Below are positions 39,692-63,568 of a DNA stretch of 64,000 nt, in pieces. The notes under the pieces are model-generated. The model saw only the letters and a list, made by a program, of their open reading frames with translations, was not told where the DNA came from and did not search any database. This DNA comes from Pseudomonadota bacterium (GTDB lineage Bacteria > Pseudomonadota > Gammaproteobacteria > Steroidobacterales > MnTg04), in NCBI GenBank assembly GCA_022572885.1, contig JACZVC010000016.1:2646-66645 (forward strand), written 5' to 3'. The position numbers were made by a program, and so were the translations under genes. The number at the start of each line of letters is the position of its first letter. Within the stretch, counting starts at the first letter, position 1.

Positions 39692-41020
39692 CTAGCTGTC
39701 TTTCGCTTTCTTGGCTGCAACAGCTTTCTTGGTCGCGGTTTTCTTGCTCGTGGCCTTTTTCGCCGCCGCCTTCTTGGCAGGCGCTTTCTTCGCTGCAGCT
39801 TTCTTGGCCACCGCTTTTTTTGTTGTGGCTTTCTTGGCCGCTGCTTTTTTTGCCACCGGCTTTTGGGCGGGCGCCTTGGCATCCGCTTTTTTGACGGCCG
39901 GTTTATTGTCGGCCGCCTTGGCATCCGCTTTTTTGACGGCCGGTTTATTGACGGCCACCTTGGCATCCGCTTTTATAACGGTCGGCTCTTCCGCCACCGG
40001 CGCCGTTGCAGTATCGGTGCTGGCCTGCGCGGGCTCTGGCTTGGTTGCCACTGCTGCATCCGCGACGATCTCTACCGGTTTGGCCTTCGCTGCCGGTTCG
40101 GCTACGTCCGCGACCGGCTCCGCCGGTTCTGTCTTGGCCTCCCTGCCCAGATCGGCCTCCTTTGGATCCGCTATTTTGGCGACCGGCTTTTGCGCTTGTC
40201 CGGCCCTCCCAAGTGTCGTTACGATGACCTTTTTACCCGTTCTTTTGGGCGCAGGTTTCCCGGCTACGGCCTTTTTCCGGGGCTTGCCTTCGTCATCGAG
40301 CTCGACGAATTCGTCATCGCCGAGGTTAATTTCAGGCAACGAGGCTTTGCCGTCGAGAACCGCTTCCGCTACGCCGTTCGCATATAGCTGGATCGCACGC
40401 ATTGCGTCGTCGTTGCCAGGAATTATGTAATCGACGCCATCCGGCGAGCAATTGGTATCCACGACGGCGATTACCGGTATCCCCAGTTTGACCGCTTCCC
40501 GTATCGCAATATTTTCGTGGCCAACATCGACGATGAACAATGCGTCGGGCAGGCCCTTCATGTTTTTGATGCCCCCCAGGCTGCGGAACAGTTTGTCCAT
40601 ATCGCGCCGCAGACCAATGACCTCTTTCTTGGTCAGCGTATCAAACGCACCGCTTTCTTCCATCGCCTCCAGGTCTTCGAGCCGGCGGATCGATGCGGTG
40701 ATGGTCTTGAAATTGGTCAGCATGCCGCCCAGCCAGCGATGATTGACAAACGGCATGTCGCAGCGCGTTGCTTCCGTTTTGATCGCTTCGCGTGCAGAAC
40801 GCTTGGTGCCGACAAACATCACCGTGCCGCGATTGGCAACTATGTTCTTTACGAACGCGGCGGCTTCGCTGAACAACGGCATTGTCCGCTCGAGGTTGAT
40901 GATATGGATTTTGTTGCGCTCCCCAAAGATAAAGGGGGCCATTTTTGGGTTCCAGAACCGAGTCTGATGACCGAAATGCACGCCAGCTTCCAGCATCTGG
41001 CGCATTGATACGTTAGCCAT
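39692..41020 (-). CDS. rpsB: 30S ribosomal protein S2 with a ~210-aa Lys/Ala/Pro-rich C-terminal extension
   Basis: The first ~228 aa are canonical S2 ([36 protein letters not shown]). The same ORF continues to 442 aa as a low-complexity tail ending [52 protein letters not shown]. Confidence 0.95.
39874..39986. repeat. 42-nt in-frame tandem repeat (about 2.7 copies) inside the rpsB tail
   Basis: ccttggcatccgcttttttgacggccggtttattgtcggccg (39874-39915) repeats at 39916-39957 with 2 changes, and partially from 39958. It encodes the [14 protein letters not shown] units. Confidence 0.9.
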
Positions 41021-52593: not shown

Positions 52594-55500
52594 TTAGCGC
52601 AAGCCGGTAGCGCTTTGTTTTAACCCTCGTTTCAGCCAGTCTTTCAGCGAATCCTGGTCGAGCTTGATGCGGAACTTGAGGTACGGCCCCTGCGCCGTGT
52701 AACGGGCTTCGGTGAAATCTGCGTCGTGGAAACCGATGATGTTGTAGCCGATGCTGAGCCAGGCGTTCTTCATCACCATGTGACCGATATCCGCGCCGAG
52801 GCCATATTTCACGACCTTCGACTTCCATGTATGCAGGACACTGGCATGCAGGCCCCAGTCCCATTGCGGGTCAATGTCCCGGCGCATGCCGATGCCAAGC
52901 AGATCGGTAAAGCCGGTGTAACCGGTATCCGAATAATTACTGCGCACGTATTTTGCGGCGTACTGGAACGAGAACTGGACATCCAATGCCGGCTTCCAGT
53001 TGGCATTGAAATTGTTGACGACTTTCCAGCTACGCTGGTCGATGCTGCCCAGGTGCTGTTCCTCGTAAATCAGATCGAGCCGGTCAAATATGATCCAGCG
53101 GCTCAAGTCGGGCCGGTAAGCCCAGTTCAGCCGCAGATCACTGGTCGTCGTGCGCCCGCCGGCGGTCGGTTTGTCGCTGAACAAATGCAGACCGACCGAG
53201 AAACCATGACCCGCGATTTCTTCCCGGTACAAGCCGCCGAGAATGCCGAACCGTTCGCCGCTGTCGGCGTTACGATATTCAACCCGTCCGGTCGCCGACC
53301 AGACTTCCGCCCGGTAGGTCGCGCCGGCCCAGGTCGCGACGAAGTCGTCATTGCTGCCGGAAGCCAGCGGGAAATCGCTTTGCAGCGGCTGCACGCTCGC
53401 GCCGGCGATGGTGTTGGCATGGTCAACGCCGAAATCCAGCAACAGCTTTTCGGTCAGTTGCACGCCCTGGGTCAGTCCCAGCGTCGCGAAAGTGCGCGGC
53501 CCGTACTCGCTCGACTGCTGGTTGAGCGTGCTGCTGAATTCAGCCTGGTTCCACGGCTTGGCCCTGATCCCGACGCGCGTCATGTCGGTTTCGATATCCG
53601 CACCTTTGGTAGTCTCATATTCGGTGAACACCGTGATGCTGTCGCGCAGCTTGAAATCGACGCCCAGCGTCTTGCGCTGCGGGAAATCGGCATTGGCGTC
53701 GTTATCAGAGAGGACGATTTCGGTCGAGCCGCGCAAGGTCACCCGCCGGTCCAGCACATCGATCGACCCGCCCAGGTAAAGCTGCTGCGAGTCCTGGGTG
53801 TTGCCGAGGGCGTCCTTGTCGGACGCGTCGATAAAGCCAATCGTCGCGCTCCGGTTGCTTTGCCGATAAGTCAGTTCGGTCAGAATCGCGTCCCGGGTAA
53901 CGCCGGACTGCAGGTTTTTCTGGCGGAACACATCGGCGGTCAGATCGAGATGCTCGTTGAGCTTGTAACGGCCGTCGAAACCGGTTTTCCGGGTGCCGCT
54001 TTCGCTGGCAAGCTGATGGCCCAGGCCGAATCCACTTTCCTGTTGGCGGAAATACGCGCGACCGGTAAGACCTGCGCTCTGGTGGCTCAACTCAGCCAGG
54101 TAAGCGTCGCCACCGACATCGATACCCGCACGGGTTCCATCGCTGCGCGCGACCTCCAGCTTCAGTTGGGTCGCTTCACCCATCTGCCAGCGCAGATCGA
54201 CGGCGCCGAGGTCGCCTTCGTTACCACTGTCGCCCTGGTGAATATAACTGGCGCCGATTTCGATCAGGCCATCCGCCGAGCGCAGTGATGCGCGCCCACC
54301 GCCGCTGGTGTCTGTACCATTTGCGTTGCGGCTTTCGTACTCGACGATGATGAATAACGGGTTAAAGAGTTCGTCTCGGCTCGGTACCGGTTTCTTGAAG
54401 TAGACCGTACCCGCCAGGTAGTCGATGTTGTAATCGAGATAGCGGGTCAGCGTTTTCGTGCTGATGATCTGTTCGCTGCGGAAACGATCGCGCACCACCA
54501 GCCTGATTTGTTCGCTGTTGAGCACGATGTCTGCCGCGCTGAGCCGGTACAGGCCCGAGGTCCCGTTACCCTGGATCTCGTCTTTGACAAAAATCTGATC
54601 GGTCCGCGCGGCAAACGCGCTGTAGGCGAGCGTGCGCCCGCGATACTCGGAGCGAACACCATTGAGACGGCGGTTGTAACGCGCCAGCTCGGTGACCGTC
54701 AGAGCGGTTTCGTAATCGCCGAACAAGGCATAGAACTGGTTTCTTTCCAGCTTGAGGTAGAGTTTTTCCTGGCTGGATGCTTCGTAGCCTTGCTCGGTGC
54801 TATCGCCGTACAGGGTATAGAACTGCCGCGGGTCGATGGTGCCGAACAATTTCCGGCGGGCTTCGTCTTTATCTTTTGCCGTGTCATAAGCCATCGTCAG
54901 CAGGTATTCACCCTTGATGCGGCCCTTGGCAAAGAATGCGATGCGGCCATCCTCATAGAAATCGTCTTCAATCCCGCTCAGGTCAGCGAGTTGTGCGTTG
55001 TCCTTGATGTCGTTGTAGCCCAGCGTGGTTTCGGCAAGACCGACCAGGATCCAGTCACGGATTTCCGGTTTGAGCCAGACGCGGATCTCTTGTTCGCGCT
55101 GGTCGGCGAATTTGAAATGCAACACCGCCTCACCGGAAACCGTCGTCGGCTCCAGTTCGATTAGCGCGACACCATCGTCGCCAACCGTGTAAACCGGCTC
55201 CCGCTCGCCGATGGCAACCAGCGGGTTTTCTTTGAGCGATTCCACTTCCCACCATGACCGGCGCGGCGGATTGACATAGAAATTTCCGATCGTGCGCGGT
55301 CGCGCGGGCTCGCCCCAGCGATCGTACATCTGTATGGCAATAACCGGGCGGGTCCGGCCATCGGCGATCAGCACCGATGCCTCGACCCGAACCTCGGCCC
55401 GCTGCGGCCCACCGGCGTAATGGATCTTGCGAGTCAGGCGTTTGACCTCATTGCCATTCTTATCACGGAACACAGCATCGAGTTCATTGCTGCCGTCGAT

Positions 55501-58500
55501 CAGGTTGATACCGCGCCAACGACTCAGGCTCACCGATTTGCTTGCCGTCGTCCGCGTGCCTTCAAAACTCAGAGCACTGATTTGCAAGCCGTTGACGAAC
55601 AGTTCGACGGTCTGCTGCGGGTCGTGTTTGACCGCAACCTTGAGGCTGGGGATCGGCGGCCGGTAGCCATCCTTCGGCCAGACCCAGCCGATGCCCGGCG
55701 CCAAGCTGTCAAGCAGTGCCGGGTCGTCGTATAGCGCATCGGGATCGGGCAACGACTCCTGCTTCCGCTGCTCGCCAGTCAGATACTCTTCGCGCGACGA
55801 CCGCTGGACGGTGTCCACAGCCAGGATACCGCTGCTGGCCTGGGTCACCTGCGCTTTTTCCGGGCTCAGCATTCTTTCACCCCAGACATGCAATTCGACC
55901 CGCCGGTTAACGCGTCTGTCCTCTGCGGTTCTTTCCACGACCAACGGCTGATCGGCGCCTTTGCCTTCGACGCTGATCTGATCCGGGGAAAGGCCCAGCT
56001 GGGCCGCAATGTAATCCGCGACGCTTCTCGCCCTCGCTTCTGAAAGCGCGTAATTGTCAGCGAACAAAAAACGGCTGCGCGCGGCAATTCTTGTATTGTC
56101 CGTGTGGCCAACGGAGCGCAGGTGGAGATTGGTCAAACCCTCCCAGTCGGCTACGACAATGTCGAGTTCAGCCTCGTCCTGCTCGCTCAAGATCGTTTCC
56201 AGTGTCGGAAAATGCGGAGTAAATATATAGTCAAACCGGTCCACTGAGGCTGGCGACAGTTGCAACCGGTTTTCTGCAACCGGCGTGCGTAATTTCTTTT
56301 CGAGCGGCGAGTCAAAATTGATCAACGCCTTGCTGATCAGTTCACCATCCAACTCGGGTCCGATCGCGGCGCGGAAACGGATCTCCTGCTGCCAGTCCTT
56401 GCCGTCGGGCAATGGGAAATTGAGCATGCGACCACTTTGCGCGTAATCGCTGACCGGCTGGCCGTCTATGCGGGCGGTCCCGGACACATAAGTGAGGCCT
56501 TCGGGCAACAGCACTATCACCCGGACATTGGTCACCGGCACATCGGTGACAGTCGCGCTCAGCCGGTAATCGACCTGGCGTTTTTGCGATAGCAATCGGC
56601 TGTCCATGCTGACGCTGACCTGTCCTTTCGCCGGTTCGAGTTCGCGCAGATAAAAATCGGCGCGCCACAACGAGCCTGGCTGCAACTCGACGAACTGCGT
56701 CGATTTGCTGCCGGCGAATCGAGTGTTGTCCTCACAGGCAATCAGTTCGACGTATGGCGGTATCGTGACGGTGTCAACCTGCACGACATGCGTGCCGGGT
56801 TTCAGTCCTTCGAAGTGGTAACGGCCATTCTCATCGGTGACCACGTAACGCCCGTCTTCCAGGTATATACGCACACCGCCGATGCCGGTTTCCTCATCAC
56901 CGGAATCGTTCTTGCAACTTCCAAGCAGGACTCGGCCGGCCAGTAAACTCTCACTGCCAAGCAGATCTTCGGCGATGTTCACGACCGCGGTGGCGGCATT
57001 GGACAGCAGGCCACCGTTGGTAGACGCCTGTGCCTGGTTGATCGCCTTGCCAAGTGGGGCCCCGGCCGCGACTTCGACGACATAGGCGATAGCGACGCTG
57101 CCAGCCGCCGGCAGCACGCCGATATCGATGGTCATCTGGCGTCCATCGGGACCGATCAGCGGGTCGGCGGCGGCGATGCCATCGATGGTCAGCGAGCCCG
57201 CCTGGTATTTGAAACCGACCGGCAGCTGATCGGTGATCACGGTGCCCGTCAGGTTCCCAAGCGCCGAGGTATTTTCCAGCACCAACTGGTACTGCACAAA
57301 ATCACCGATCGCGGCAACGCCGTTGCCGGTGGTTTTCTGCAGGAACAGCTCGGTGCTTAGCAGGTCCAGTGGCAGATCCACTGCGAAGCCTGGCTCCGGC
57401 CCGCTGGCGAGCACGTTGCCAAACGAACCCGGACCCAGCGCGTACGGTGCGCCCGGCAGTAATTGCAATTCGGCGATCGTCCGTGTCGAGGGCGCGACAA
57501 ACCCCGCCGACGGTATCACCTGAATCCGGTAATTCCCCGGCGGCACGACCGGGAAGCGGTATTCACCGCTGGCGAAATTGTAACTGGTGCCGCCGCTGTC
57601 GGTGACGGTACCGCCTGAAAGAACAGTCGACGGAAAAATACTGATGCCATCGTCGCCAAACACTTGTGCTGGCAAGCCGCTGGCATCGTCCAGCAGCGTA
57701 ATGCTGGCGCCGTCGATCGGCTGGCCGAGCTGCGAATCAAACACGCGACTGTATGGATCGACCCTGACGTTGTCGCCAGACTGGTCGCTGGCGTCCGCCG
57801 GATCGACATAGTCGGCAGAGACCTGGCCGCCGGCCGATAACTGGAGCACACAATCTCCCGGCACTGGATTTCCGGACGCGCTCTGCAGATAACCCGCGAA
57901 TACACCGCTGTCCACCGCGGTTTCGGTCAGCAGAATCTCTTCATTGTCACCAGCCGGAGAACCCTGCAAGATCACGCTCACCGTTTCCCGCACCAACGGG
58001 TCCAGGTTTTGATCCGCATCGGCGACCCGCACAAACACCGCTTCGCCGACGTGATACGAAAGACTGTCCACGACGGTTTGCGGCTGGTTCGGGTCGATGC
58101 TGATGCCACCGGTCAGCAACGGATCCGGCAACGCAACGAAGCCGGTACCCGATAAGTTACAAGACGCCGGCCCGATCGCCTCCACGAGCCCCGGGGCGCC
58201 AGGCAGCACCCGTGTCAGGTCGAGAATACTGGCGGTCCTGGGCACTACGGTGACAATTTCAACCAGATTGCTGATCACTGTTTCCGGCAGACCAGATGGA
58301 GCCTGATAATCGAGGGTTGCGAGGTTCGGAATAATCGTTCCGGGCGGGGTCTGAGCCACCGCCGGCAACGCCGAAAGCAGTCCCAATAAAAGCAAAAAAG
58401 CCCGGACCGGGCGAATTAGAGACGACGATTTTTTCGTCGGTTTCTGATCAGGTGGCGGTCTCCTCCCGGAACCTGAGCCCCGGTCTGAACGCAAGCCGGG

Positions 58501-58575
58501 GCCGCCGACCGAACCACCGGAATTTCCGGTGGTTCGGCCGCGTCCCCGTAACGAGTATGCGCCCAAGAAGATCAA
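52594..58575 (-). CDS. Giant (up to 1993 aa) secreted/outer-membrane protein with Ig-like repeats, an internal OmpA-like domain and a long barrel-like C-terminal region
   Basis: A single uninterrupted ORF. A signal-like segment ([22 protein letters not shown]) lies at aa ~53-75. DUF11/TIGR01451-like segments are present ([81 protein letters not shown]). CarboxypepD_reg/SdrD-B-like segments are also present ([50 protein letters not shown]). An OmpA_C-like motif lies at aa ~795-900 ([13 protein letters not shown]...[16 protein letters not shown]...GKGADQPLV...NRRVELHV). The last ~800 aa have alternating-polarity strands rich in aromatic and Gly residues. The start is uncertain because there is no ATG before the signal segment, and the listed start is TTG. 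Confidence 0.8.
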   Translation of the reverse strand: [1993 protein letters not shown]

Positions 58576-58591: not shown

Positions 58592-59737
58592 CTACTGTAT
58601 CGTGACCCGGAAGCTCACCGTGGCGACATCGGCCGGGTTCAGCGTGACAGCGTTGACTGTCACGATGTTCGCGGCGAATACGCCCTGATCAGCATCAGCC
58701 TCTTCCGTCAGATCGGTAACGACTGCGTTGATATCGAGCTGGATATCAAACACATTGCCAACACCGTACTGATTGGACGTGAACGCAATCCTGCCGGCGC
58801 CGATTTCAACCGACAAATCATCGGCAATCGTGACAGTGGTCGCTTGCGCGGTGCCGGTATTCGTCACCGTGATCGTGTATTCGACGATCGCGCCGGGAAC
58901 GGCCAATGGATTGGTCGTGCCGTTGAACGGATCCGAGATTACAGTGGACGCTTTGACAATCGTCAGCACCGCCGCCTGCACCAGGAATGCATCCCGGTCG
59001 GAAGCCTGACCATCCACAGCACCGTCATCGGTCGAGGTGACCGCGGGGAAGTCGTCGGCAAACACCACATCGACCGATCCGGGCGTATCCGCACCGACAG
59101 TCTCCGCCGTCAGCGCATCCAGTACCCCCGAGGTCGAATCATGCGTCGTCGCCTGCAGCGAAACACCGATCACCGCGCCATTGACGGCGCCAACGGGAAT
59201 ATCCGCAACCACCCAGACGGTGCGCGTTTCATCGGCAGCCATCGCGTTGAGGAAGGTCACGACCACGTCAGCACCATCGAATGTGTTGCTGCCATCGTCC
59301 AGGTATATGGTGATGGTGGTTGCGTCACTGGTTGCGCTGTCGCTGTCGGTCAGCGCTGCGCTGAACGGCACGGAAGCACCGTCACCCAGGTTGACCGCTG
59401 CCAGGGCATAGTCTTGCTCCGTATTGCCTTCGTTGGTCACCGTAAACCCCAGTATCTGCGGGTCGACAAAACCGGCGACCAGCTGGCCGGGAACGACCAC
59501 TGCCGCGCTGTCGCTGATTTCGGCAACCAGCACGTCGACCATGTTGTCCACGACAAAAACCGCGGGCGCGCTGGTGACCGGCGTTTGCGCGACGCCGCCA
59601 CTGGAAAAGTTGACCGTGGCGTCGTTGGAGATCGACGTCCCCGAAGGCGTACCGACCGCGAAGGTCGTCTGGGCAAACATCAGACCCAGCAGACCGACAA
59701 GCACGCCAAGGCGCGTTATCTTTGCTTGAGTTTTCAT
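58592..59737 (-). CDS. Secreted DUF11/TIGR01451 repeat-domain protein (381 aa), candidate fibre subunit
   Basis: The ATG has a GAGGAG SD. A signal peptide is present (ITRLGVLVGLLGLMFAQTTFA). The composition is Thr/Val/Asp/Ala-rich beta type. The C-terminal DUF11 pattern reads PGAIVEYTITVTNTGTAQATTVTIADDL...VSFRVTIQ. It is a paralogue of the 323-aa protein. Confidence 0.8.
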   Translation of the reverse strand: MKTQAKITRLGVLVGLLGLMFAQTTFAVGTPSGTSISNDATVNFSSGGVAQTPVTSAPAVFVVDNMVDVLVAEISDSAAVVVPGQLVAGFVDPQILGFTVTNEGNTEQDYALAAVNLGDGASVPFSAALTDSDSATSDATTITIYLDDGSNTFDGADVVVTFLNAMAADETRTVWVVADIPVGAVNGAVIGVSLQATTHDSTSGVLDALTAETVGADTPGSVDVVFADDFPAVTSTDDGAVDGQASDRDAFLVQAAVLTIVKASTVISDPFNGTTNPLAVPGAIVEYTITVTNTGTAQATTVTIADDLSVEIGAGRIAFTSNQYGVGNVFDIQLDINAVVTDLTEEADADQGVFAANIVTVNAVTLNPADVATVSFRVTIQ

Positions 59738-59915: not shown

Positions 59916-60422
59916 TCACTGCAGCCGCGTGCGAAAACGGGCAAAACCCTGCGCACCCGGTTGTAGTTCGTTCCTCAGTATCCAGCGTATATCCGTATAG
60001 TCGGATGCCTGCGCCGGCCGCTGGCTGCCATCTGGCGCAGTCACCACCAGTTCTTCGGGCGTACCCCAGCTCTGTCCGCCATCGATCGAAAAACTGATAT
60101 CGGCGCCGGGTCCGAAAGCGGTCCCATCCACGTATTCCATGTGCCGCGGCACCGGGTTGGTAATCACGACGCTTTCCGCCGGCTCGCTGCCGGTATTGGA
60201 AAAACTGACGGTGTAGATGACGATATCGCCAGGTACGACCTTGCTGGCCGGCTCAAGACGGGTAACCGTTTCACCATTGGCGTCGGTCTCGATGATTTCC
60301 ACATCGGCCGAAGTCTGGATCTGAATAACCCCGGTTTCCTGTGGCGTCGCGACGAATGACATCAGAAACAGCGCCAGCAAGCCGAGCGAGCGAGCGATAA
60401 TTTTGTTGTTGAAAGTTTTCAT
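59916..60422 (-). CDS. Small secreted single-DUF11-domain protein (168 aa)
   Basis: A signal peptide is present (IIARSLGLLALFLMSFVATPQ). There is one TIGR01451-like domain (PGDIVIYTVSFSNTGSEPAESVVITNPVPRHMEYVDGTA). The start lies 11 nt after the stop of the upstream gene. Confidence 0.8.
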   Translation of the reverse strand: MKTFNNKIIARSLGLLALFLMSFVATPQETGVIQIQTSADVEIIETDANGETVTRLEPASKVVPGDIVIYTVSFSNTGSEPAESVVITNPVPRHMEYVDGTAFGPGADISFSIDGGQSWGTPEELVVTAPDGSQRPAQASDYTDIRWILRNELQPGAQGFARFRTRLQ

Positions 60423-60433
60423 GGTTTATCCCC

Positions 60434-61405
60434 TTAGTTGATGACCACGGTAAATGCGATGGTTTGCGGTCCATCCGCCGAATCCAGATCGCCCAGCGAC
60501 ACGGTTACTGCGCCACCGACAAACGCGCCGGCATCGGCATCCGGTGCATCGGTCAGCGGACCGCCGTTCAATGTCAAAGAACCTGCCTGGTAGGTGGTAA
60601 AAGGCGGAATCGGATCAGTGAAAGTCGCGTTGATTGCCGTGCCCGAACCACTCGCGGTCACCACAATCTGGTAGGTGATCTGTGCGCCCGGTATTGGCTC
60701 GGTCCCGCCAAACGGATCGACAACCGATGCTGACTTGACGATTGACAGCGAAACGTTGCTGACGATGTAGGTGCCGGTATCGGCATCATCGCCGCCATTG
60801 GCACCGACCACCGCATCGGTACCCAGATCGCCCTGGCCACCAAAAACATCGCCCGGGGCGCCGGTTCCGGTCAGGGAAGTCGCGGTCAGCTCGCTAAAAC
60901 CCTGGTTGCCGTCGACCAGCCCGAGCGGGATATCGTTGACCAGCAGAATATTGACCGAGGCGTCCGGCGCCAGTTGCGGGTCATTGACCCCGGCATTGTA
61001 CGGGGTGTCGCCGGCGGACAGGTCGCCGCTGCCATCGCTGTCAAAAAAGATCGATGGCGCCGCCGGGACCGGATCGAAATCATCGCCAGGCAAGGCGCTG
61101 TCGATAGCCAGGGTGAAATCCTCGGTGCCGTTACCGGTGTTGGTCACGGTAAACAGCAACGAGCGATTGGCGTCGCCCGGCGTCACCGGGACGATCGGGC
61201 TCTGCAACAGGACGTTGACATCGAGGATCTCGGCCACGGTGACCACCAGGATGTTCGAGCTCTGCGACACCGGCGTGCCGGCGATCAGGTAATCGACCTG
61301 GGCGGAATTCGCGATATCCGTACCCGCAGTGGTACCCACTGCGTATACGGGTTGCGAACCGATCAGGGCTCCCAGCAAAAGCAAAAACATCGGTGTCCGT
61401 CTCAT
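60434..61405 (-). CDS. Secreted DUF11/TIGR01451 repeat-domain protein (323 aa), candidate fibre subunit
   Basis: ATG 61405 is preceded by AAGGAG. A signal peptide is present (MRRTPMFLLLLGALIGSQPVYA). The C-terminal DUF11 pattern reads PGAQITYQIVVTASGSGTAINATFTDPIPPFTTYQAGSLTLNG...IAFTVVIN. The track ORF starts 11 codons earlier at 61438. Confidence 0.8.
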   Translation of the reverse strand: MRRTPMFLLLLGALIGSQPVYAVGTTAGTDIANSAQVDYLIAGTPVSQSSNILVVTVAEILDVNVLLQSPIVPVTPGDANRSLLFTVTNTGNGTEDFTLAIDSALPGDDFDPVPAAPSIFFDSDGSGDLSAGDTPYNAGVNDPQLAPDASVNILLVNDIPLGLVDGNQGFSELTATSLTGTGAPGDVFGGQGDLGTDAVVGANGGDDADTGTYIVSNVSLSIVKSASVVDPFGGTEPIPGAQITYQIVVTASGSGTAINATFTDPIPPFTTYQAGSLTLNGGPLTDAPDADAGAFVGGAVTVSLGDLDSADGPQTIAFTVVIN

Positions 61406-61605
61406 TATTGGCTCCTTACGCCGCCTTGCACTTGCCATCTGTTTATGGACGCGGGTACAAGCTGCAAAAACCCCCGCGAATTGAGTGTGTTACCGGAGCG
61501 AATATAGGTTAATCCGCGAAGTAACATAATGGTTTGGTGCTTATTTTCCCGAATTATTTGACAGTTATTTCTGAAATTGTGAACGGCGTCACAAGCATTC
61601 GCGTC

Positions 61606-61983: not shown

Positions 61984-63147
61984 TCAGGCAGATACCTGGC
62001 TAAATCTGATCTTTAAGCATCCCTTACCAAGACTTTGATCGTTCCGTCCGCGGAGCGTGTAGCCGATCGACACTGTCTTTCCCTGCATGTCGGGCCCCAC
62101 CGCCAGCCGCAAGTCGCTTTCAAAAGCCTGCTCCGGGCTGTCAGGGGGGAGCAAGCCGAGCGAGCTGCGCACCAGTATTTTGTCATCGCGGCGCTGTACC
62201 TCCGGGTAGCCTGGCTTTTCGACCTCATGCCGAGAGCGTTTGTCATCCGGGCTGATATACAGGCGATCGGCCACATCCAAATCCGGAATTCGCGGAAAAG
62301 CGAGTACAATGCTCACATCCTTGATGCCCTTTGCACCCTTGTTGCAAACTGTCAGATTCAGTTTCACTGCTCGTTCTTCGAAAAAGTAGTAGTTATCGGC
62401 GTCGGCAAACTTTTTTTCGGGCTCTTCGTATACGCCAATCAACGTATCCATGCCACGCGCATCGAATTCGGCATCAGGACCATATTCACGTACGTGCGTC
62501 ATTCGCATAATTTTTGTGTTTAGCGTACCGAAACTATCTTTAATCGCCTTTTTGAAATCCAAGCTCTTCTTAACTTTCCGTTTTTCCCCGGCAGATGGCG
62601 GATTAGAGGTGTCAGGCACGGGCGACTCGAACAACGCACAGTCCGGCCGGCCATTGAAACCCACCATAATCGTGGGTTGATTGGCCGCCTCGTGCGCGCT
62701 GATCTGAGCGAGCTCAGTGCAATCGACGGCGCGAAGTTGCCGGCCCTCTCGGATCCAGGACTGACCGCGCGAAAGCTTTTCGGAGAAATCCTGCCTGACG
62801 ACATACGGCCCGTCATCGCAACCGTCAATTTCCAGAGCGCCAACGAGCTTGTTGTTAATCCTGTCGTAGATGAATGCCAGGTGGAGAACCGGTTCGATCA
62901 GTGCCGATGACAGCCGATGGGCTTTCTTCAGATCGGTCATGACGCTGTCAGCGATACCGACGATACGGCTGCCAGCCATGGCTCCCGCATTGATCCCAAA
63001 CAGGATATACCGGGGGCCATCGACATCGGCGTTGGCCAGGCCGATGACCTCCTTGACCAACTCCTCCTGATCCTGCTCCCGGAAAGGATCGCAAACGAGC
63101 AGGTTTGCGGAGGTTAGTGATCGTTCTAGCAATTGCTTCAGGAGCAT
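61984..63147 (-). CDS. Hypothetical protein with an N-terminal Schlafen/AlbA_2-like (divergent AAA) domain
   Basis: 387-394 aa (ATG 63147 or GTG 63168). EELVKEVIGLANADVDGPRYILFGIN...RIVGI...LEIDGCDDGPYVVRQDF...SWIREGRQLR follows the AlbA_2 layout by eye (conserved ANxxGG-like loop, IGV strand, P-Y-V strand, IR-G). The C-terminal ~220 aa are unassigned. The gene has lower G+C than the core region. Confidence 0.55.
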   Translation of the reverse strand: MLLKQLLERSLTSANLLVCDPFREQDQEELVKEVIGLANADVDGPRYILFGINAGAMAGSRIVGIADSVMTDLKKAHRLSSALIEPVLHLAFIYDRINNKLVGALEIDGCDDGPYVVRQDFSEKLSRGQSWIREGRQLRAVDCTELAQISAHEAANQPTIMVGFNGRPDCALFESPVPDTSNPPSAGEKRKVKKSLDFKKAIKDSFGTLNTKIMRMTHVREYGPDAEFDARGMDTLIGVYEEPEKKFADADNYYFFEERAVKLNLTVCNKGAKGIKDVSIVLAFPRIPDLDVADRLYISPDDKRSRHEVEKPGYPEVQRRDDKILVRSSLGLLPPDSPEQAFESDLRLAVGPDMQGKTVSIGYTLRGRNDQSLGKGCLKIRFSQVSA

Positions 63148-63568
63148 GACATTGACCGGAAATCGCACTTACCGATAACTCTAGATGCTACGCCTTACAT
63201 GATTCTGCGATGGCAGTCTCAGTTTCCTGATCTGATCCGTTCGGGTATCCAGCCTTTTTTGCCACTTGGGCTTCTACCGGCGTGGACCTGTCTGGCATTC
63301 CAGATGTTTCCTTAACTTCATAAAATATTCCGATGATGTGAACCGGATCACACTGTCGGTCGGACCTTCCTCTCGAACCGGCATGCCGTTCACATCCAAA
63401 ACGCCACTAACTCTCTAATATTTCGAAAGTGATCGTGTCTGGCGAGAGTTGATCCAGGCCTGAAATCCGCGATACTGAGGGAACGACACTGCCACGAATT
63501 AGCAATGAGTCGATAGGTGACCCTTTTTCGTATACGTTATTGGGATGGCAATAAATAGCTTGAATACC

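Follow-up and report, generated by a model that had tools for sequence, protein, structure and literature searches.

Gene D, which closes a conserved four-gene cluster, encodes a giant protein that we propose, with a probability of roughly 50%, to be the basal subunit of an A-B-C-D surface fiber built from four proteins, acting as both its anchor and its conduit. The gene lies in a stretch of 64,000 nucleotides of gammaproteobacterial DNA, here called the window. All four proteins would be exported by Sec, and the hairpin of one would fill the truncated CLIPPER (CnaA-type Ig-like) domain of the next, building a head-to-tail chain with A and C as the shaft, D as the final link, and the distal end capped by B or, in certain phyla, by a large adhesin-like protein. 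The joints may lock covalently and enzyme-free, giving a fiber that is possibly isopeptide-locked. In D, a stalk of six beta-sandwich domains would run straight into an OmpA-like domain that grips peptidoglycan, followed by a flexible linker, two Ig-like domains, and a ~36-strand barrel with a gate-like insert, which would be the route by which the folded subunits, as well as D's own stalk, pass the outer membrane. No published description of this fiber system was found, and it looks like an undescribed but widespread bacterial surface-fiber system.

Conservation of the A-B-C-D cluster

The cluster in the window consists of the following genes:
60434..61438, (-), gene A, 334 aa: signal peptide, donor hairpin, middle beta domain, truncated CLIPPER acceptor
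59916..60422, (-), gene B, 168 aa: signal peptide and one truncated CLIPPER domain
58592..59737, (-), gene C, 381 aa: signal peptide, donor hairpin, middle region, truncated CLIPPER acceptor
52594..58575, (-), gene D, putative giant anchor-pore protein: open reading frame of 1993 aa, colinear orthologs

The same gene order, with D as the last gene, was present in 54 of 54 phylogenetically related loci, which span Gammaproteobacteria, Desulfobacterota, and Nitrospirota. That the four genes keep this strict order across three phyla speaks for a physical complex. Genes for a chaperone, usher, sortase, or ATPase are all absent from the conserved cluster. The D orthologs in these loci are colinear and 1890 to 2057 aa long. 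Searches gave at least 300 matches to the family of D, with its barrel module reaching at least 580 species genomes and at least 3,457 clusters (50% identity) in the same three groups; the module is invariably C-terminal, in proteins of 1.8 to 2.8 thousand aa.

A CLIPPER domain apparently divided between gene products

The C termini of A, B, and C each consist of a CLIPPER domain that stops after the seventh strand and lacks the last two, while the mature N termini of A, C, and D consist of exactly those two strands (GTxIxNxAxVxY...SNxVxxxV). A and C are donor and acceptor, D is donor only, and B is acceptor only. The parts outside B are located as follows:
61214-61339, (-), donor hairpin of A, aa 34-75 (donor HMM)
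60437-60790, (-), truncated CLIPPER acceptor of A with invariant Lys and Asp, aa ~217-334 (profile comparison)
59528-59656, (-), donor hairpin of C, aa 28-70 (donor HMM)
58595-58984, (-), truncated CLIPPER acceptor of C with Lys and Asp, aa ~252-381 (profile comparison)
58231..58356, (-), donor hairpin of D, aa 74-115 (donor HMM, profile-completion test, divergent representatives)

The donor-hairpin HMM matched A in 51/54, C in 53/54, D in 53/54, and B in 0/54 loci, always at the signal-peptidase site. The D hairpin is the counterpart of the last two CLIPPER strands, Asn included, and this Asn and the hairpin motif are still present in divergent D representatives. The exact cut point between subunits is visible from the complete tandem CLIPPERs of a neighboring protein, which read ...lxIxAtVdAG/xAGTtIxNxAxIsA...sgNdsssvaltV (the slash marks the cut point). 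When the real hairpin was appended to an acceptor, the score against a complete-CLIPPER profile rose by 5.4 to 7.0 bits for A, 3.3 to 4.2 bits for C, and 2.4 to 3.5 bits for B, a modest gain, compared to 0.3 to 2.0 bits for shuffled or reversed hairpins. For A, the end of the match moved from position 79 to 100-108 of 119, and Pfam PF01345 and DUF7619 behaved in the same way.

Lys and Asp are 80 to 100% conserved in the acceptors of A and C, and the donor Asn hardly varies in C and D and is Ser or Gly in some A orthologs. Since the acceptor Lys, the catalytic Asp, and the donor Asn are kept, the joints may self-lock covalently. In B, which is small, highly conserved, and devoid of a donor hairpin, Thr and Asn stand for Lys and Asp.

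A doubtful alternative is that A, B, and C are monomers completed in cis and form no fiber, with D being a self-contained envelope tether or porin (SlpA-like, or a giant OmpA in reverse) whose barrel sits in the outer membrane, whose OmpA-like domain binds peptidoglycan, and whose stalk stays periplasmic. In its favor, AF2 docked A's own hairpin in a single chain at pLDDT >90, a prediction equally compatible with self-completion as a circularly permuted monomer domain. DCA on A (Neff 80) did not distinguish which domain the hairpin contacts, and natural C-D or A-C fusions were absent among 144 representatives. However, the D hairpin is conserved although D harbors no truncated acceptor; both of its CLIPPER domains are complete, which leaves the hairpin without a partner in cis. 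Conversely, B and large accessory proteins have a truncated acceptor and no donor, and their acceptors therefore cannot be completed in cis. The synteny described above likewise speaks against isolated monomers, and the lumen of a ~36-strand barrel would be left without a rationale.

In the window, the donors A, C, and D exactly balance the acceptors A, B, and C, as would fit a short B-A-C-D cap with one copy of each protein instead of a polymeric pilus. D would then be a giant autotransporter-like fibrillar adhesin that exports its own stalk through its C-terminal barrel and is clamped in the periplasm by its OmpA-like domain, with A, B, and C only decorating or lengthening its tip, which we consider unlikely. 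At loci with an extra acceptor-only adhesin, acceptors outnumber donors, suggesting repeated use of A or C, and, as both carry donor and acceptor, homopolymerization would be possible in principle.

The earlier note on this DNA, which had dealt with D, is supported on its OmpA-like domain and barrel-like C terminus, while the unusual membrane crossing that it considered is not required, and it missed the A-B-C-D context. The operon and the shared N-terminal hairpin, which mark D as a link in a multi-protein chain, are the decisive context added here.

Start and signal peptide of D

The open reading frame of D comprises 1993 codons and begins with TTG. Its 5' part contains two features:
58497..58548, (-), stable RNA hairpin after gene C and ahead of the D start, -46.1 kcal/mol, z -7.3
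58357..58494, (-), Sec-type signal peptide of D with a long basic n-region (read off the sequence)

Because the very stable RNA hairpin fills codons 9 to 27, the true start is probably TTG 58494 (codon 28), yielding a product of 1966 aa (numbering here follows the full frame). The signal peptide is probably cleaved after AVA (aa 73), and an AxA-type site directly precedes the donor hairpin in all orthologs.

Stalk, OmpA-like domain, and Ig-like pair of D

Between the donor hairpin and the barrel module, D contains the following segments:
56242..58230, (-), N-terminal stalk, aa 116-778 (Pfam and alignment conservation)
55876..56232, (-), OmpA-like peptidoglycan-binding domain, aa 782-900 (PF00691, NCBIfam, AF2/Foldseek, PDB profiles, motifs)
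55696..55872, (-), flexible linker, aa ~902-960 (pLDDT 29-41)
55066..55689, (-), two Ig-like beta-sandwich domains, aa ~963-1170 (AF2, Foldseek, profiles)

The stalk is arranged as aa 116-270, CarboxypepD_reg, CLIPPER-1 (aa ~405-530, complete, with conserved Lys, Asp, and Asn), CarboxypepD_reg/SdrD_B, and CLIPPER-2 (aa ~650-778, complete). Pfam matched DUF11/CLIPPER (PF01345) in two stretches, best at aa 410-519 (37.6 bits, cut-off 24.6), CarboxypepD_reg (PF13620) in two stretches (44.3 bits, cut-off 32.3), and SdrD_B (36.5 bits, cut-off 29.7). The Ig-like or carboxypeptidase-regulatory-like repeats read there previously are thus largely borne out, except for aa 116-270, which had no match in the Pfam search. 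CLIPPER-2 abuts the OmpA-like domain with essentially no linker, and the stalk must therefore be periplasmic at least at its base, as the tether or porin reading would also have it; that the remainder is surface exposed we purely infer.

PF00691 matched aa 792-891 with 44.7 bits (cut-off 27.2), in agreement with the mid-chain OmpA-like domain proposed earlier, and NCBIfam OmpA/MotB/TssL-type models and PDB profiles matched the same region. Among the 54 orthologs, the motifs that contact peptidoglycan (GH.D, LS.ARA, and NRRV) show at least 80% conservation. An AF2 model of aa 781-1975 (pLDDT 83.7, pTM 0.74) gave a pLDDT of ~90 for this domain, with TM scores of 0.66 to 0.85 to 3td5, 5u1h, 5m38, and 6jfw. 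The domain is a bona fide member of the OmpA/MotB/Pal family with its ligand-contact residues kept but, unlike in OmpA, it stands N-terminal to the barrel and after a ~700-aa stalk, i.e., in reversed order. The linker is the least conserved segment of the protein and is predicted to be disordered. The following two predicted beta-sandwiches, where Ig-type strands had been noted at aa ~960-1160, match GH2 Ig-like domains in Foldseek and profile searches and are presumably periplasmic, adjoining the barrel.

Predicted barrel module of D

The C-terminal module was divided into three parts:
54601..55050, (-), predicted barrel strands 1-7, aa 1176-1325 (AF2, strand analysis, covariation)
54328..54597, (-), predicted two-stranded ribbon and small beta domain (AF2 secondary structure, covariation ladders)
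52666..54312, (-), predicted barrel strands 8-36, aa 1422-1970 (AF2, strand analysis, covariation)

AF2 predicted with high confidence ~36 long antiparallel amphipathic strands at aa ~1176-1970 (7 plus 29, with an insertion), which alternate hydrophobic and polar residues and are joined by turns of 2 to 6 residues. Strands 1-7 hold the near-invariant motifs RDWILVG and FFAKG.IKG, and the sole break in the 29 later strands is a disordered loop at aa 1674-1700. By mfDCA (Neff 288), most consecutive strand pairs showed antiparallel ladders, most with z 3 to 10. The C terminus is thus predicted to be a beta meander of the membrane-barrel type that greatly exceeds a type Va barrel in size, as the earlier note had suspected; a solenoid or a run of Ig repeats was rejected by the AF2 strand meander. 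We infer one closed barrel of ~36 strands; the covariation signal for closure between strands 1 and 36 is weak, and strands 8 and 22 share a ladder (z 3.1) that was not expected and misfits a simple single meander. The turns are short on either side, unlike in typical outer-membrane proteins with surface loops, a trait that would suit a tether or porin.

Between strands 7 and 8, a predicted ribbon (aa 1327-1335 paired with 1406-1416) bears a small beta domain (aa 1342-1393), and this insertion is a candidate for a plug or gate. Its covariation ladders 1331-1412 and 1335-1408 have the same register as 1317-1430 and 1324-1423, and it falls in the best-conserved stretch of D (aa ~1268-1427). In ushers, too, the plug is an early insertion, between beta6 and beta7. 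This position, together with the soluble Ig-like domains adjoining the barrel, would be consistent with D as an usher-type platform whose periplasmic N-terminal region, hairpin included, recruits, orders, or primes A and C, the only proteins to exit through the barrel, while B, being acceptor-type without covalent-bond residues, holds donor hairpins as a periplasmic chaperone. We regard this as very unlikely, since kinship to ushers or PapD-like chaperones was absent by sequence and Foldseek, a subunit-like donor hairpin would be odd on a platform that stays outside the chain, and an OmpA clamp midway in a recruiting arm lacks an explanation.

The D barrel had no family match in Pfam, NCBIfam, or PDB sequence searches, and Pfam revealed neither PF03797 nor another type V barrel signature. 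Foldseek TM scores were at most 0.26; the top non-Ig, non-OmpA matches were the outer-membrane barrels BtuB, ZnuD, LptD, MtrB, SprA, and SlpA, of which SlpA/SDBC scored highest (0.21 to 0.26), a point for the SlpA-like tether. These searches detected no relation to usher, LptD, BamA, FadL, or autotransporter barrels, and ~36 strands is well above the usher (24) and LptD (26) sizes to which the barrel had been likened.

Comparison with known systems

The proposed A-B-C-D fiber resembles chaperone-usher pili (Fim/Pap, with FimD/PapC) in that an incomplete Ig-like fold is completed in trans by the N-terminal extension of the next subunit, in its large outer-membrane barrel exit with an inserted domain, and in its order of tip, shaft, and terminator without an ATP source at the outer membrane. 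In contrast, it has no PF00577 usher or PapD-like chaperone homology and no chaperone gene, its C-terminal CnaA-type (CLIPPER) domains would be completed by a two-strand donor hairpin, its predicted barrel has ~36 strands versus 24, and the pore protein D is itself the last chain link, with a peptidoglycan-binding domain.

In type Va autotransporters, the chain runs from the outside through the lumen to the periplasmic face and into strand 1. D shares with them a C-terminal barrel behind an N-terminal beta-rich passenger, as would fit the adhesin reading, and the OmpA-like and two Ig-like domains would sit at the corresponding periplasmic turn; the unusual order of membrane crossing considered earlier is not needed. 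As in type Ve intimin/invasin, where it is LysM, a periplasmic peptidoglycan-binding module adjoins the barrel. However, D has a predicted ~36 strands versus 12, about 3 times the type Va size, no PF03797 or intimin signature, and extra secreted subunits in its operon.

CLIPPER is a proven isopeptide domain (Lys-Asn, Asp-catalyzed) that forms tandem stalks in Gram-negative fibrillar adhesins, and the Acinetobacter silvestris adhesin B9T28_05395 has an OmpA-like anchor (PMC12617251). This precedent, with the same Lys/Asn/Asp and anchor, would also suit the adhesin reading. In these adhesins and in Gram-positive sortase pili, the isopeptide forms within one molecule, and the stalk consists of a single polypeptide or is sortase-polymerized, whereas here the domain is split across gene products, a sortase is absent, and the OmpA-like domain lies mid-chain before a giant barrel.

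Archaeal threads (Saci_0406) assemble head to tail by donor-strand complementation. Isopeptide bonds via the N-terminal tail, which apparently form spontaneously, link Asn57 to the N-terminal amine between subunits n and n+2, and an operon partner was proposed as the cap (PMC9715654). Complementation, isopeptide potential, and a cap are proposed for the A-B-C-D fiber as well. The threads, however, have another fold and belong to a monoderm archaeon without an outer-membrane pore or peptidoglycan anchor, and the triad here is the Lys/Asn/Asp of a CnaA-type domain divided between chains.

In size, the predicted barrel is comparable to the giant single-chain barrels of SprA (the T9SS translocon, 36 strands), Deinococcus SlpA (30), LptD (26), and MtrB (26). 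It differs from them in domain order and partners, without sequence similarity and with the low TM scores given above. Like D, SlpA joins its barrel to a wall-binding domain (an SLH peptidoglycan anchor), and SprA passes folded proteins, a role that we propose for the D barrel.

Conserved four-gene cluster

The open reading frame claimed for the giant protein, here named D, proved to be real. Immediately upstream of it and on the same strand, we found three genes (here named A, B, and C) for secreted proteins of the CLIPPER type, i.e., with the CnaA-type Ig-like domain DUF11 (PF01345).

60434-61438 (-): gene A, secreted CLIPPER-type protein of 334 aa
59916-60422 (-): gene B, secreted CLIPPER-type protein of 168 aa
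58592-59737 (-): gene C, secreted CLIPPER-type protein of 381 aa
52594-58575 (-): gene D, giant protein with an N-terminal stalk, an OmpA-like domain in mid-chain, and a barrel-like C-terminal region

The order A-B-C-D is conserved in 54 of 54 loci with enough flanking DNA, which come from three phyla, and the flanking genes vary from phylum to phylum. No chaperone, usher, sortase, or ATPase gene travels with the cluster. Scanning the operon for promoters and terminators revealed nothing exceeding shuffled expectation.

Using the barrel module of D as query, we retrieved more than 300 proteins with 42 to 78% identity, annotated as "hypothetical" or "OmpA family protein." When 1.84 billion cluster representatives were searched exhaustively for the module, there were 3,457 matches at an E value of ≤1e-3, including 1,391 at ≤1e-30; in the best 150 of the 3,457, the module is C-terminal every time, in proteins of about 1.8 to 2.8 thousand aa. 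Scanning a single genome for each species, we identified at least 580 carriers, with Woeseiaceae, Steroidobacteraceae, Desulfuromonadales and Geobacter, Desulfatitalea, and Nitrospirota among the carrier taxa, and with Povalibacter uvarum DSM 26723 (Steroidobacteraceae) as a cultured carrier.

In several long-read MAG assemblies, in-frame stops or frameshifts break D, and public annotation therefore lists spurious pieces of it as "OmpA family protein" and "hypothetical protein." An apparent split of D into two genes in a Nitrospirota MAG (locus L003, 9900-10010; 1,024 aa plus 1,011 aa) was rejected: an in-frame stop stands in place of a conserved Trp codon, and the second part is without a signal peptide. 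Fragmentation of D in two further loci (L001, 8312-10305, and L002, 6785-9974) was judged to reflect frameshifted assemblies.

Domain content and start of D

Pfam domain positions showed that the segment boundaries proposed in the earlier note were essentially correct. The OmpA-like segment passes the gathering threshold of PF00691 (aa 792 to 891, 44.7 bits versus a cutoff of 27.2), and the stalk contains two CLIPPER stretches (best aa 410 to 519, 37.6 versus 24.6 bits), two CarboxypepD_reg stretches (44.3 versus 32.3 bits), and an SdrD_B match. In NCBIfam, D matches solely OmpA/MotB/TssL-type domains (1e-17 to 1e-5) and DUF11-repeat domains. The C-terminal ~1,100 residues have no match in Pfam or NCBIfam.

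Downstream of the gene C stop codon and ahead of the region for the D signal peptide, a very stable RNA hairpin is predicted within codons 9 to 27 of D (58497-58548, minus strand; -46.1 kcal/mol, z -7.3), with a perfect, GC-rich core of 12 bp (58510-58538). Since no canonical start codon follows codon 28 ahead of the signal peptide either, the true start of D is most likely the TTG at 58494. Judging from the sequence, the Sec signal peptide would then be cut after ...ALPAVA (aa 73). The hairpin might serve in processing or attenuation, and it could set the ratio of subunits to anchor.

Predicted structure of the C-terminal region

We modeled aa 781 to 1975 of D with AlphaFold2 (AF2) using an alignment of 120 homologues and obtained a mean pLDDT of 83.7 and a pTM of 0.74 for these C-terminal 1,195 residues. 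The model comprises an OmpA fold (model residues 1 to 120), a disordered stretch (122 to 161), and two β-sandwich domains (about 183 to 390), followed by seven long strands, a small β domain, and another 29 long strands. Predicted turns of the barrel are 2 to 6 residues long, with the exception of two loops, and hydrophobic residues alternate with polar or charged ones in the predicted strands, e.g., in two stretches of 14 and 12 residues. When the model was compared with the PDB using Foldseek, the β-sandwiches matched GH2 Ig-like domains, and the remainder matched only outer membrane barrels (BtuB, ZnuD, Cir, LptD, MtrB, SprA, and Deinococcus SlpA; TM score, ≤0.26), which argues for an outer membrane barrel as its fold class. 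No solved relative of the barrel was found in this comparison, and a profile search of PDB sequences returned OmpA-like domains only.

As a check of the topology independent of AF2, we applied mean-field direct coupling analysis (DCA) to 333 sequences (Neff 288). Antiparallel ladders link nearly all consecutive strands, most with z values of 3 to 10. Residues 1316 to 1335 and 1406 to 1432 form a long ribbon, with the pairs 1317-1430, 1324-1423, 1331-1412, and 1335-1408 in nearly one register, and a small domain (aa 1342 to 1393) sits at its tip. The predicted meander then has 7 + 29 = 36 strands, and the insertion comes after strand 7 and before strand 8. The earlier note had named a soluble β-solenoid or Ig repeats as the reading opposed to a barrel; both are excluded by the covariation ladders, which are of the hairpin type (i + j constant) between consecutive strands. 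One further ladder, between aa 1422 to 1432 and 1662 to 1672 (strands 8 and 22; 52666-54312, minus strand), comprises four pairs in one register at z 3.1 and is at odds with a simple single meander.

OmpA-like domain

The predicted OmpA region superimposes on the solved OmpA-like domains 3td5, 5u1h, 5m38, and 6jfw with TM scores of 0.66 to 0.85 and root mean square deviations (RMSDs) of 2.4 to 3.3 Å (Foldseek), and the model thus has the α/β fold of this family in mid-chain. Among 54 full-length D orthologues, conservation reaches at least 80% for the motifs GH.D and LS.ARA and extends to the third ligand motif, NRRV. We take GH.D and LS.ARA to correspond to D271 and R286 of AbOmpA, the Asp and Arg that contact DAP. 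Peptidoglycan binding by aa 782 to 900 is a prediction. The orthologues give a gap-free alignment over aa 68 to 1987, and the linker following the OmpA-like domain (aa ~902 to 960) is the sole poorly conserved stretch; on the N-terminal side, the second complete CLIPPER domain of the stalk (CLIPPER-2) adjoins the OmpA-like domain without a linker. This colinearity over the full length, together with the retained motifs, indicates that the mid-chain OmpA-like domain is an ancient, fixed feature. We assign a probability of roughly 0.9 to the reading that the mid-chain OmpA-like domain is real, that the C terminus is of a giant barrel type, and that D belongs to a conserved, uncharacterized four-gene system.

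Split CLIPPER domains

The mature N termini of A, C, and D carry the motif GTxIxNxAxVxY...(G)...SNxVxxxV, at most a few residues from the signal peptidase site. A profile of this two-strand hairpin (the donor) matched A in 51, C in 53, D in 53, and B in none of the 54 loci. At their other ends, A, B, and C stop abruptly on a strand of the type [IV]xFxVxI[NDQ]. Complete tandem CLIPPERs in a neighboring large protein read ...lxIxAtVdAG / xAGTtIxNxAxIsA...sgNdsssvaltV; this indicates that the subunits are cut exactly before the last two strands of the domain, which are found at the head of A, C, and D. The truncated C-terminal domains are here named acceptors.

We scored the acceptors with and without hairpins against a profile of 109 complete CLIPPERs from within D orthologues. 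Real hairpins raised the score of acceptor A by 5.4 to 7.0 bits (shuffled or reversed hairpins, 1.5 to 2.0), that of C by 3.3 to 4.2 bits (0.3 to 1.0), and that of B by 2.4 to 3.5 bits (0.3 to 0.6); these gains are modest in size and come from related loci but are consistent. With a hairpin added to acceptor A, the end of the match moved from profile position 79 to 100 to 108 of 119. With the sequences of the window itself, Pfam PF01345 and DUF7619 showed a similar effect. On their own, A and C score 19.9 to 25.7 bits against PF01345, borderline to the cutoff of 24.6 because their domains are truncated; B scores 28.5 bits. The CLIPPER crystal structure 9IFR was the top PDB match for the acceptor profile, a weak one (E value, 0.028) in which strands 1 to 4 alone were aligned.

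In CLIPPER, which is of the CnaA type, Lys and Asn form an isopeptide bond with an Asp as catalyst (PMC12617251). The Lys, Asp, and Asn triad is conserved within the first complete CLIPPER of the D stalk (CLIPPER-1). Acceptors A and C retain the strand-1 Lys and the Asp of ".D.IP" at 80 to 100%, and the Asn on the donor hairpin is near-invariant in C and D and still recognizable in very divergent D proteins. The chemistry of these residues would suit a split domain. Covalent locking of the joints is a doubtful proposition at this stage. B, an acceptor-type protein highly conserved across the 54 loci, shows conserved Thr and Asn residues at the positions taken in A and C by the isopeptide Lys and Asp, and it could act as a noncovalent cap or a hairpin-holding chaperone.

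Pairing within or between chains

A donor could complete the acceptor of its own chain or that of another. AF2 modeled mature A with a pLDDT of 94.7 and placed its own hairpin at 90 to 97; since AF2 is unable to tell intrachain from interchain contacts in homo-oligomers, this confident placement fits both alternatives. In DCA of the shallow A family (Neff 80), pairing was seen just between the two strands of the hairpin itself. Foldseek with A gave generic tandem-Ig matches only (TM score, ≤0.3), one of which, ranked 10th, was a Saf donor-strand complex. Among 144 representatives, no natural C-D or A-D fusions were found, and the hairpin is still N-terminal in the longer D proteins.

The case for pairing between chains is a combinatorial one. 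D has a donor, yet each of the two CLIPPERs in its stalk is complete, and B is an acceptor without a donor. Furthermore, a large protein of 850 to 1,560 aa is encoded upstream of A in Desulfobacterota and Nitrospirota loci (L075, 551-4675; L003, 1-3888; L081, 732-4886; L082, 3-4697; L084, 2216-4804; L076, 2264-4804; L071, 1063-4713). In each of the seven, the final strand is of the acceptor type, and the donor hairpin is absent. The L075 protein, the only one read over its whole length, consists of a non-CLIPPER N-terminal domain, several complete tandem CLIPPERs, and, at the very C terminus, a truncated acceptor like that of C. The large protein is likely a tip adhesin; the window contains no gene for a protein of this kind. 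The orphan donor of D and the orphan acceptors of B and the large protein can be satisfied only between chains. Read from sequence, acceptor-only (tip), donor-plus-acceptor (shaft), and donor-only (base) proteins would be the grammar of an ordered head-to-tail fiber, and we consider it fairly probable that the split CLIPPER domain links A, B, C, and D into a hetero-oligomeric chain.

Comparison with known systems

In their working, chaperone-usher pili come closest; they combine incomplete Ig folds and N-terminal donors with an outer membrane barrel that carries an insert. However, D has no match to the fimbrial usher PF00577 in Pfam or NCBIfam, no PDB sequence match to an usher, and no usher among its top 50 Foldseek hits; the usher barrel has 24 strands plus a plug and N- and C-terminal domains, whereas about 36 strands are predicted for D. 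No PapD-like chaperone is encoded in the operon, where the neighbors of D are of the CLIPPER type only. Type Va autotransporters have a 12-strand C-terminal barrel (PF03797) with a helical pore linker, an arrangement that D lacks: there is no Pfam match to PF03797 and, as the earlier note had supposed, the barrel-like part is far larger, by a predicted factor of about three. Kinship to LptD, BamA, FadL, or TonB-dependent receptor barrels was not borne out (no HMM match; target-normalized Foldseek TM score, ≤0.26; RMSD, about 20 Å). With the 36-strand translocon SprA (6h3i, 8gl6, and 8gl8; TMq, 0.14 to 0.17; 6 to 7% identity), D has the size class alone in common.

Archaeal threads resemble the proposed fiber in combining donor-strand complementation with spontaneous intermolecular isopeptide bonds (PMC9715654), and Gram-negative CLIPPER fibrillar adhesins use the same domain and may end in an OmpA-like anchor (PMC12617251). 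We found no description of the A-B-C-D cluster in the literature searched, which covered CLIPPER (DUF11) domains, isopeptide bonds in donor-strand systems, TIGR01451 with ushers, and 36-stranded structures. The cluster appears to be a new rendering, from unrelated parts, of the theme of a donor-strand fiber and an outer membrane pore.

Proposed assembly

After Sec export, hairpin complementation would connect either B or the adhesin with A and C and lastly with D, driven by folding of the completed CLIPPER domain and possibly made irreversible by spontaneous isopeptide formation. The six-domain stalk of D runs straight into the OmpA-like domain, so the base of the chain would be clamped to peptidoglycan. 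From there, a flexible linker of ~50 residues would lead to the two Ig-like domains and the giant barrel, the putative outer membrane passage for stalk and fiber, with the inserted ribbon domain as candidate gate. From barrel geometry, we estimate that a lumen of ~36 strands is wide enough for folded Ig-like domains. Like that of type Va autotransporters, the chain may pass from the outside through the lumen, reach the periplasmic face, and continue into strand 1, which would place the OmpA and Ig domains at the periplasmic turn. The earlier note had posed a choice between a periplasmic stalk and an unusual crossing order; its mid-chain OmpA-like domain stood, and an unusual order would not be needed with such a path.

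We regard the full model of an anchored fiber through the barrel as evenly balanced. That the cluster represents an unrecognized class of diderm pilus, with hairpin-swapped split CLIPPERs, Lys-Asn self-locked joints, and D as both peptidoglycan clamp and ~36-strand exit barrel, is a speculative extension that we think rather unlikely; if true, it would be a natural SpyTag/SpyCatcher-like chain and a wall-anchored covalent fiber as in Gram-positive bacteria, but sortase-free and crossing the outer membrane.

If the model holds, present catalogues of pili and secretion systems lack a surface-fiber pathway encoded by a cluster very common in bacteria of sediment, soil, and groundwater (Woeseiaceae, Steroidobacteraceae, Geobacter relatives, and Nitrospirota). 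It would be a new way to build a fiber that spans two envelope layers, and to anchor it, with no need for ATP, a chaperone, or a sortase; D would be among the largest single-chain barrels known, and the naturally split, possibly self-ligating Ig domains would be useful as protein-engineering tags. D-type proteins exceed the length limit of most of the AlphaFold database, and Pfam has no model for their C-terminal 1,000 residues, which may explain why they were overlooked. With P. uvarum DSM 26723 in culture, the model is open to direct test.

Other features of the window

Directly upstream of the cluster lies a gene for a Schlafen/AlbA_2-domain protein (61984-63168, minus strand; PF04326, 29.4 bits). 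The region from 62 to 64 kb has a GC content of 0.528, below that of most of the window (mostly 0.56 to 0.63). The gene for ribosomal protein S2 (39692-41020, minus strand) encodes 442 aa, in which a normal S2 is followed by an Ala/Lys/Pro-rich tail of ~190 residues with AKKA-type repeats.
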